Source of the DNA: Escherichia coli | Lineage (GTDB): Bacteria; Pseudomonadota; Gammaproteobacteria; Enterobacterales; Enterobacteriaceae | DNA: 64,000 nt | Strand: one strand, 5' to 3' | Assembly: GCF_009931435.1 (NCBI RefSeq) | Contig: NZ_CP043414.1 | Shown here: positions 10,640-10,988 of the stretch, one piece after another | Layout of the letters: the number at the start of each line of letters is the position of its first letter | How positions within the stretch are numbered: position 1 is the stretch's first letter | Notes under the pieces: generated by a model | The model's input: the letters and a program-made list of their open reading frames with translations, nothing else | What the model was told of the DNA's origin: nothing | Database searches by the model: none | Translations under genes and position numbers: made by a program

Positions 10640-10988
10640 GCCTGATGCGACGAGGTCTGTGCAGGAGTAGAACCGTAGGTCGGATAAGGCGTTCACGCCG
10701 CATCCGACAGCCGTTGCCTGATGCGACGCCGGCGCGTCTTATCAGGCCTGTGCAGGAGTAGAACCGTAGGTCGGATAAGGCGTTCACGCCGCATCCGACA
10801 GTCGTTGCCTGATGCGACGCTGGCGCGTCTTATCAGGCCTGTGCAGGAGTAGAACCGTAGGTCGGATAAGGCGTTCACGCCGCATCCGACAGTCGTTGCC
10901 TGATGCGACGCTGGCGCGTCTTATCAGGCCTACACAGGGGGAGAACCGTAGGTCGGATAAGGCGTTCACGCCGCATCCGACACGCATT
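10640..10988. repeat. BIME/REP tandem array (one 76-bp unit plus three 91-bp units)
   Basis: Units starting at 10640, 10716, 10807 and 10898 share gcctgatgcgacgc...gcgtcttatcaggcct and gtaggtcggataaggcgttcacgccgcatccgaca palindromes; units 2 and 3 differ by a single base. Confidence 0.85.

Follow-up and report, generated by a model that had tools for sequence, protein, structure and literature searches.

A tandem BIME-2 array of variable length between dedD and cvpA in Escherichia coli, with proposed gyrase-site and mRNA roles

Between the genes dedD and cvpA of Escherichia coli (RefSeq assembly GCF_009931435.1, contig NZ_CP043414.1) lies a tandem array of repetitive extragenic palindromes (REPs), which we analysed within a stretch of 64,000 nucleotides, hereafter the window. 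The array is a bacterial interspersed mosaic element of the BIME-2 class and is orthologous to the cvpA-dedD BIME-2 of strain K-12. In the full reading that we favour, to which we assign a probability of about 0.9, it is an Escherichia BIME-2 in the 3' untranslated region (3'UTR) of folC-dedD, comprising four Z2/Y pairs of which the first Z2 is half-deleted, and standing before a conserved hairpin and U-tract upstream of the PurR-controlled cvpA-purF promoter, with proposed roles as a gyrase site and in the mRNA. The literature on BIME-2 elements, their affinity for gyrase and their copy-number polymorphism goes back to the 1990s, and there is nothing new in the identity of the array, which is a textbook BIME-2 at a locus already entered in a published BIME-2 table.

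Tandem Repeats Finder returned one tandem array after dedD, the sole such array in the window, at 10653-10997 (period 91, 3.8 copies, 95% matches, 0 indels, score 606), and a gapless repeat search recovered 163-nt copies at 91/91 spacing together with a 15-nt anchor, TTGCCTGATGCGACG, at 76/91/91 spacing. Hence the tandem 91-bp BIME/REP array downstream of dedD, described in an earlier note made from the letters alone, is borne out by both methods, and self-comparison showed the 91-bp periodicity with no miscount. The array and its neighbours are arranged as follows.

9968..10630, plus strand: dedD coding sequence (CDS), the upstream gene (RefSeq annotation of the co-linear locus mapped to the window; open reading frame (ORF) list)
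10628-10630, plus strand: dedD stop codon, TAG
10638..10713, plus strand: unit 1, 76 nt; truncated Z2 inverted REP (iREP) at 10640-10652 (5' arm only), linker, complete Y REP at 10675-10708 (starting GTAG)
10714..10804, plus strand: unit 2, 91 nt; Z2 iREP at 10716-10749 (ending CTGT, not CTAC), 16-nt tail-to-tail linker, Y REP at 10766-10799, 7-nt head-to-head linker
10805..10895, plus strand: unit 3, 91 nt; Z2 at 10807-10840, Y at 10857-10890
10896..10986, plus strand: unit 4, 91 nt, the terminal unit; Z2 at 10898-10933 with intact CTAC, Y at 10948-10981
10987..10997, plus strand: 11-nt stub TTGCCCGATGC, a partial copy of the Z2 foot that closes the array and is what 0-unit alleles retain
11147..11635, plus strand: cvpA CDS, the downstream gene (ORF list; RefSeq annotation mapped to the window)

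The array starts 7-9 nt past the dedD stop codon and ends 150 nt 5' of the cvpA start (11147), in a locus where accD and folC lie upstream with dedD, and cvpA is followed downstream by purF. A full unit is made up of four parts: Z2, an imperfect palindrome (GCCTGATGCGACGCYGGCGCGTCTTATCAGGCCT); a 16-nt linker; Y, likewise an imperfect palindrome but inverted relative to Z2 (GTAGGTCGGATAAGGCGTTCACGCCGCATCCGAC); and a 7-nt linker. Every unit has Z2 forward and Y inverted, and the inverted-repeat arms of adjacent REPs agree. Unit 1 measures 76 bp because its Z2 has lost 15 internal bases (loop and 3' arm); its Y REP is intact, so that two REP palindromes per unit, as the earlier note had it, is correct for units 2-4 and too many for unit 1, which holds one and a half. 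The lengths given there, one 76-bp unit and three of 91 bp, are right, and units 2 and 3 do differ by one base (C at 10730 against T at 10821); 'near-identical' is slightly generous for the three, in that units 3 and 4 disagree at 8 of 91 positions, every one of them in the two linkers. Among the foot tetranucleotides, which in a BIME-2 are expected to be GTAG, or CTAC for an iREP, GTAG stands at all four Y REPs, and CTAC is found only at the Z2 of unit 4, the Z2 copies of units 1-3 having CTGT, a foot common at the dedD-cvpA locus in other strains.

A degenerate Z2 pattern matched four times in the window, with 0-2 mismatches, against 0.00 matches expected by chance; three of the matches lie in the array. 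The fourth, a solitary REP GTCGGATGCGACGCTGACGCGTCTTATCCGACCTAC at 1290-1325 on the minus strand, is the only REP-pattern match outside it. An inverted-repeat search with 8-nt seeds found no match in the array because mismatches interrupt the REP stems, which 6-nt seeds recovered.

The two BIME classes have been distinguished by Ton-Hoang et al. (PMC3333891): BIME-1 elements pair z1 with y, are single-copy and have a long L linker, often with an IHF site, and BIME-2 elements combine z2 with y, occur as multiple tandem copies joined by short linkers, and vary between strains in the number of copies per locus. The array shows z2 and y composition, alternating orientation, tandem copies, short linkers of 16 and 7 nt in place of a long L linker, and a copy number that varies between strains, all features of BIME-2; of the features of BIME-1 it shows none, its partner REP being z2, its copies tandem and its linkers short. 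An assignment to the BIME-1 (RIB/RIP) type, recruiting IHF, would draw on the general statement in the earlier note that such arrays bind IHF and on the occurrence of Y REPs in both classes; BIME-1 elements also have a Y REP with an inverted partner and are extragenic at gene 3' ends. However, the z1 partner, single copy and long L linker with IHF site that mark BIME-1 (PMC3333891) are replaced here by a z2 partner, 7- and 16-nt linkers and tandem units; the IHF core WATCAANNNNTTR is absent in or near the array and within thousands of bases of it, the sole matches in the window being at 17261 and 30826, no more than chance; and Sutormin et al. (PMC6379681) filed the K-12 ortholog under BIMEs2. 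This assignment is thus very improbable, and the expectation of IHF binding falls with it, since the site belongs to the BIME-1 L linker (PMC3333891); gyrase binding would be expected of the array, IHF binding would not.

The K-12 ortholog is listed in Table DS3 of Sutormin et al. (PMC6379681) as 'BIMEs2 2437498-2437581 (83 bp) <cvpA-<dedD'. The same study found gyrase cleavage sites over-represented in BIME-2s, mainly in y REPs and more so when transcription is blocked, and mapped two cleavage sites to this element with rifampicin plus ciprofloxacin and one with microcin B17 (PMC6379681). The K-12 RefSeq record has CDS features only and no REP feature at the dedD-cvpA locus. Identity, architecture and orthology are matters of observation: the two elements share locus, flanks and unit sequence type, the K-12 unit is orthologous to unit 4 of the window, and in both the distance from the dedD stop codon is 9 nt and the tail to cvpA 165 nt. 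They differ in that K-12 has one unit and a spacer of 258 nt where the window has four units and 516 nt, and in the window the first Z2 is short by 15 nt and three Z2 copies end in CTGT rather than CTAC.

The class assignment is supported from another side by the Rfam family RF02564 (naRNA4), a family modelled on a single Y-l-Z2 unit of REP325, which is a BIME-2 of six units lying between yjdM and yjdN (PMC4550694). Three full-length matches on the plus strand exceed its gathering score of 59.5 bits, and those on the minus strand (54.9-56.4 bits) fall below it.

10678..10748, plus strand: RF02564 match 1, Y-linker-Z2, 78.9 bits (Rfam)
10769..10839, plus strand: RF02564 match 2, 80.8 bits, both hairpins aligned, with a 6-nt deletion in the linker (Rfam)
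10860..10930, plus strand: RF02564 match 3, 80.8 bits (Rfam)

REP325 (naRNA1-6 of K-12), too, has tandem Y/Z2 pairs between co-oriented genes, and with respect to the gene upstream they are ordered and oriented as in the array. It differs in having six units, a 100-bp period, owing to its 13-nt head-to-head 'l' linker, and another tail-to-tail spacer, whereas the period here is 91 bp and the 7-nt head-to-head linker accounts for the 6-nt gap in the Rfam alignment. These matches, and the report that naRNA4 from REP325 binds HU and condenses the nucleoid (Qian et al. 2015, PMC4550694), could be taken to mean that each unit encodes a nucleoid-associated small RNA like naRNA4, which would bind HU, bridge cruciform DNA and condense the chromosome. 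However, since the Rfam model itself represents one BIME-2 unit, a match is to be expected from any Y-Z2 pair, and we therefore regard the hits as correct family matches to a BIME-2 unit and not as evidence of a dedicated small-RNA gene. Furthermore, a preprint sharing an author with the original work (10.64898/2026.03.23.713779) reports that deletion or overexpression of REP325 leaves nucleoid volume unchanged and that neither Hi-C contacts between REPs nor a stable ternary complex of HU, DNA and naRNA4 were found, and a promoter-like site was not found inside the array. On these grounds small-RNA genes appear improbable here.

The earlier note had also proposed that the array is a hotspot for length polymorphism, and unit counts across strains support this amply. 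Of 5,426 complete E. coli genomes, all but one (5,425) gave a match to a 1-kb query spanning the locus, and representative alleles were fetched from these and dissected. Copy number ranges from 0 to 7 units and forms a 91-bp ladder in the dedD-cvpA spacer, with a few alleles lying off it.

167 nt: 0 units, EC16 (TACGGTCTTGCCCGATGCC...)
258 nt: 1 unit, K-12 and E371
349 nt: 2 units, RM9872
440 nt: 3 units, ST131 and O157:H7
531 nt: 4 units, ERL03-1416
804 nt: 7 units, MS15236 and 09A19CPO009
516 nt: 531 minus 15, the window and 2020CK-00188
314 nt: 349 minus 35, the first Z2 precisely missing, O169:H41
235 nt: 68-nt fused unit, PC-NDM34

The 165-nt tail is common to all dissected alleles, and the stub departs from TTGCC[TC]GATG in some. 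For a ranking independent of array content, a second census used the two flanks joined as query and took 59 chromosomal rows at even steps, a systematic sample rather than a full count. One unit was found in 39 rows (66%), three in nine, four in four, and none, five or six units in one row each; the remainder comprised the 68-nt fused unit (1 row), a 162-nt insert (2 rows) and a 76+91 nt array (1 row). Clones are mostly stable, all listed B2 strains having four units and the listed ST131 and O157:H7 strains three. The locus is usable as a slowly evolving variable number tandem repeat marker that separates E. coli lineages.

Some alleles depart from the ladder. Those with the 162-nt insert (e.g. 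UID2309220013) have a second unit and a stub that differ from the standard. In the 68-nt fused unit, seen in PC-NDM34 and one further row, a diverged 5' half of Z2 is joined straight to the 3' half of Y (TTGCCTGATGCGATACTAACGCGTCTTATCTGGTACAGATAAGGCG...), making this a decayed BIME allele. In O169:H41 strain F6326-C1 the first Z2 REP is exactly missing at spacer positions 1-20 (TACGGTC|TACGCAGG). The dedD gene itself shows a 12-bp length polymorphism, 651 nt against 663 nt in some strains (PC-NDM34 and one other locus), a difference that presumably lies in its proline-rich linker.

The lineage of the window gives a closer view of these changes. Its flanks (6000-15000 tested) are 95-97.5% identical to K-12 and reach at most 98.6% identity over 7 kb with any of the 5,426 complete E. 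coli genomes, and no representative of another Escherichia species is as near to them as E. coli; the window comes from a divergent, poorly sampled E. coli lineage. The 15-nt deletion recurs in 2020CK-00188, RMDEC465 and 2017-02-2CC, and among the nearest relatives the truncated first unit makes up the whole array (76 nt) in three genomes, is followed by one further unit (76+91 nt) in ten, and by three (76+3x91 nt) in the window and 2020CK-00188. A strain with 99.1% flank identity has three full units. It follows that copy number has changed repeatedly inside the sub-lineage of the window. The single base separating units 2 and 3 had been taken to suggest recent duplication or ongoing slippage, yet it is not the mark of a very recent event: the same pair, with the same difference, is present in 2020CK-00188, whose flanks are 1.4% diverged, and the duplication therefore predates that divergence, or gene conversion keeps both copies alike. 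Relative to the closest relative (L002), units 1-3 are identical and unit 4 has four clustered linker changes at 10931-10945 (CCTACACAGGGGGAG vs CCTGTGCAGGGGTAG); the linker of the window resembles the K-12/E371 type, suggesting a short conversion or recombination tract.

Units are gained and lost in whole 91-bp steps, which would come about either through replication slippage or unequal recombination, or through cleavage and strand transfer by TnpAREP, the REP-associated tyrosine transposase (RAYT). TnpAREP cleaves at TGCC^TGAT (iREP I), at GCC^TAC (iREP II) and at C^T in the linker (PMC3333891). The unit boundary TTGCC|TGATG coincides with the iREP I site, and the O169 allele lacks exactly the segment from the C^T linker site to the GCC^TAC iREP II site, with both deletion junctions on C^T motifs, so that this deletion may possibly be the footprint of a RAYT-mediated excision. 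In its inverted REP doublets, in the GTAG flanking each Y REP and in boundaries that fall on TnpAREP cleavage motifs, the array resembles the REPIN/RAYT system (TnpAREP with REP doublets), although mobilisation or amplification by TnpAREP at the dedD locus itself is conjectural, and the window yielded no tnpAREP gene, no search aimed at one having been made.

At the RNA level, the array is predicted to fold at -209.9 kcal/mol (z = -7.8 against shuffled controls), and a single unit folds into both expected hairpins. Across 38 distinct units, drawn from 17 alleles and species and anchored on the Y REP, stems are 98.1% paired, against 25-43% in slid controls, and variation is concentrated in loops and linkers, a pattern of conservation rather than of strong covariation. 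The helix right after the dedD stop codon still folds in the window despite the 15-nt deletion. REPs at most 15 nt past a stop codon are reported, in work cited in PMC12306157, to stall terminating ribosomes, and the REP of the window starts 9 nt after. We abandoned the notion that loss of the 15 nt lifts a translational down-regulation of DedD, given that this helix still forms.

The array also produces overlapping small ORFs. Three on the minus strand start with MNALSDLRF (10578-10787, 10595-10696 and 10693-10878), a fourth (10784-11008) has VNALSDLRF in its interior, and a corresponding plus-strand family starts MRR. That they encode a real small protein is hardly credible, although reading frames of 33-74 codons are open on both strands. 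REP-derived ORFs recur hundreds of times per genome, which makes homology matches non-discriminating, and coding potential was consequently judged by codon position, start codon and frame, all of which speak against it. As 91 is not a multiple of 3 (91 mod 3 = 1), each unit falls in another frame than the one before it; among the variable sites in the 38 units, third positions are not in excess (minus-strand ORF 13/25, 11/25, 9/24; plus-strand ORF 15/28, 10/28, 13/28); and the GTG start is part of the variable Y loop, reading GTA in 9 of the 38, K-12 among them. Moreover, ORF length and C-terminus vary with copy number, a Pfam search of the small ORFs gave no matches, and no CDS is annotated in the dedD-cvpA spacer in any of 17 RefSeq loci. 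The earlier note was right to call them pseudo-ORFs, there being no coding signature. Annotation pipelines should label such ORFs, and the naRNA4 matches here, as REP/BIME sequence and not as genes.

Downstream of the array, the spacer is closed by two conserved features.

11017..11053, plus strand: terminator-like hairpin with a 12-bp stem, -18 kcal/mol, z = -4.97, followed by UUUUUAUU
11075..11090, plus strand: PurR operator ACGCAAACGTTTTCTT of the cvpA-purF-ubiX promoter (reverse complement of the motif in PMC3159470, Table 1)

Most Enterobacteriaceae genera retain the hairpin ATGGCGTTGAAYATTTTTTCAGCGCCAT with TTTTATT after it, nearly invariant even in its loop (GATGGCGTTGAATATTTTTTCAGCGCCATT TTTATT). 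With a stable stem-loop and a U-tract this hairpin has the make-up of an intrinsic terminator, and it is probably the end of the folC-dedD transcript. Its conservation, loop included, goes beyond what is usual for a terminator. The cvpA-purF-ubiX PurR site has been defined by chromatin immunoprecipitation (PMC3159470), and the 35-mer CCTACGCAAACGTTTTCTTTTTCTGTTAGAATGCG at 11072-11106, which spans the operator and the likely -10 element, is identical in at least 120 Enterobacterales species, from Escherichia to Pantoea and Erwinia. This 35-mer served as the anchor from which the distance back to the dedD stop codon was measured across genera. The segment between stop codon and hairpin proved highly variable, at 24-675 nt, upstream of the conserved hairpin and pur box, and its content differs between genera.

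Trabulsiella: 24 nt from stop codon to hairpin
Escherichia sp. E1V33: 675 nt, 7 units
Other Escherichia species representatives, in units: E. albertii 2; E. whittamii 2; 'E69' 2; E1V33 7; MOD1-EC7003 1; SCPM-O-B-8794 1
Salmonella arizonae: one Z-like REP on its own
Citrobacter: REPs occurring singly or as one pair
Kluyvera, Enterobacter, Phytobacter, Kosakonia and Buttiauxella: palindromes of an unrelated family, CCCTCTCCC/GGGAGAGGG
Pseudocitrobacter faecalis: the unrelated family CCCTCACCC...CCCTCTCCC...GGGAGAGGG as a 59-bp x 7.2 tandem array, positions 1027-1456 of its locus

The 91-bp units occupy the same site in all six other Escherichia species representatives sampled, and the insertion is thus old within Escherichia, at a slot that attracts structured repeats generally; the unrelated palindrome family in the same slot of other genera therefore represents convergent colonisation of one site by different repeat families. 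More speculatively, the stretch from the dedD stop codon to the hairpin might be a selected slot for structured repeats and, if convergence reflects selection, an adjustable transcriptional and/or topological insulator that shields the cvpA-purF promoter from folC-dedD. We consider this a doubtful extension; should it hold, unit number would be an evolvable expression dial.

As to function, the BIME-2 would most likely act as a gyrase site on DNA and as a stabiliser and attenuator on RNA, by analogy with better studied elements. On DNA, by extension from other BIME-2s and from the K-12 ortholog, the Y REPs would be sites of gyrase binding and cleavage independent of transcription. On RNA, the stacked hairpins would shield the dedD message, upstream of them, against 3' exonucleases and would reduce read-through into cvpA-purF, as for REP325 in yjdM-yjdN, where the downstream yjdN is attenuated about 8-10 fold, the upstream yjdM is stabilised in a context-dependent manner, and a ladder of hairpin-terminated transcripts is seen (preprint 10.64898/2026.03.23.713779). 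The number of units may then be a tuning dial for the stabiliser and attenuator effect.

Several points weigh against this reading. Every functional step proposed for this strain is an extrapolation; the cleavage counts at the K-12 locus are low, with none under ciprofloxacin alone and none under oxolinic acid (PMC6379681); and REP effects are context-dependent, terminal REPs not generally lengthening mRNA half-life (preprint 10.64898/2026.03.23.713779). The 0-unit allele, with the empty slot in other genera, shows that the array is dispensable. Covariation in the stems is weak, with two pairs showing compensatory changes, a number reached in 29 of 500 shuffles, and the stems could have been maintained through recent common ancestry or gene conversion. 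Finally, slippage or unequal recombination and TnpAREP excision or amplification fit the alleles equally well, and sequence alone would not decide between them.

The array may instead have no function for the host and be a selfish or commensal REP/BIME (REPIN-like) cluster of neutral length, kept by TnpAREP activity and slippage, an account that is compatible with the BIME-2 explanation and that we hold possible, if on balance unlikely. Alleles of 0-7 units are all viable and the slot is empty in some genera; unit boundaries fall on TnpAREP cleavage motifs; decayed variants exist (the 15-nt and 35-nt deletions and the 68-nt fused unit); and three of the four Z2 copies have a mutated foot, CTGT for CTAC. 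Yet, as described above, the site is occupied in six of six other Escherichia species representatives, E. albertii included, the stems are still 98% paired, unrelated palindromic repeats occupy the slot in other genera, and the K-12 ortholog has mapped gyrase cleavage sites (PMC6379681). The natural allelic series of 0-7 units, with its sub-series carrying a half-deleted first REP, could be used for testing whether REP arrays tune 3'UTR stability and read-through, as recently proposed.

Elsewhere in the window, at 41690-41732 on the plus strand, the cis-regulatory nuoG RNA family of Rfam (RF01748) matches at 50.3 bits against a gathering score of 33.

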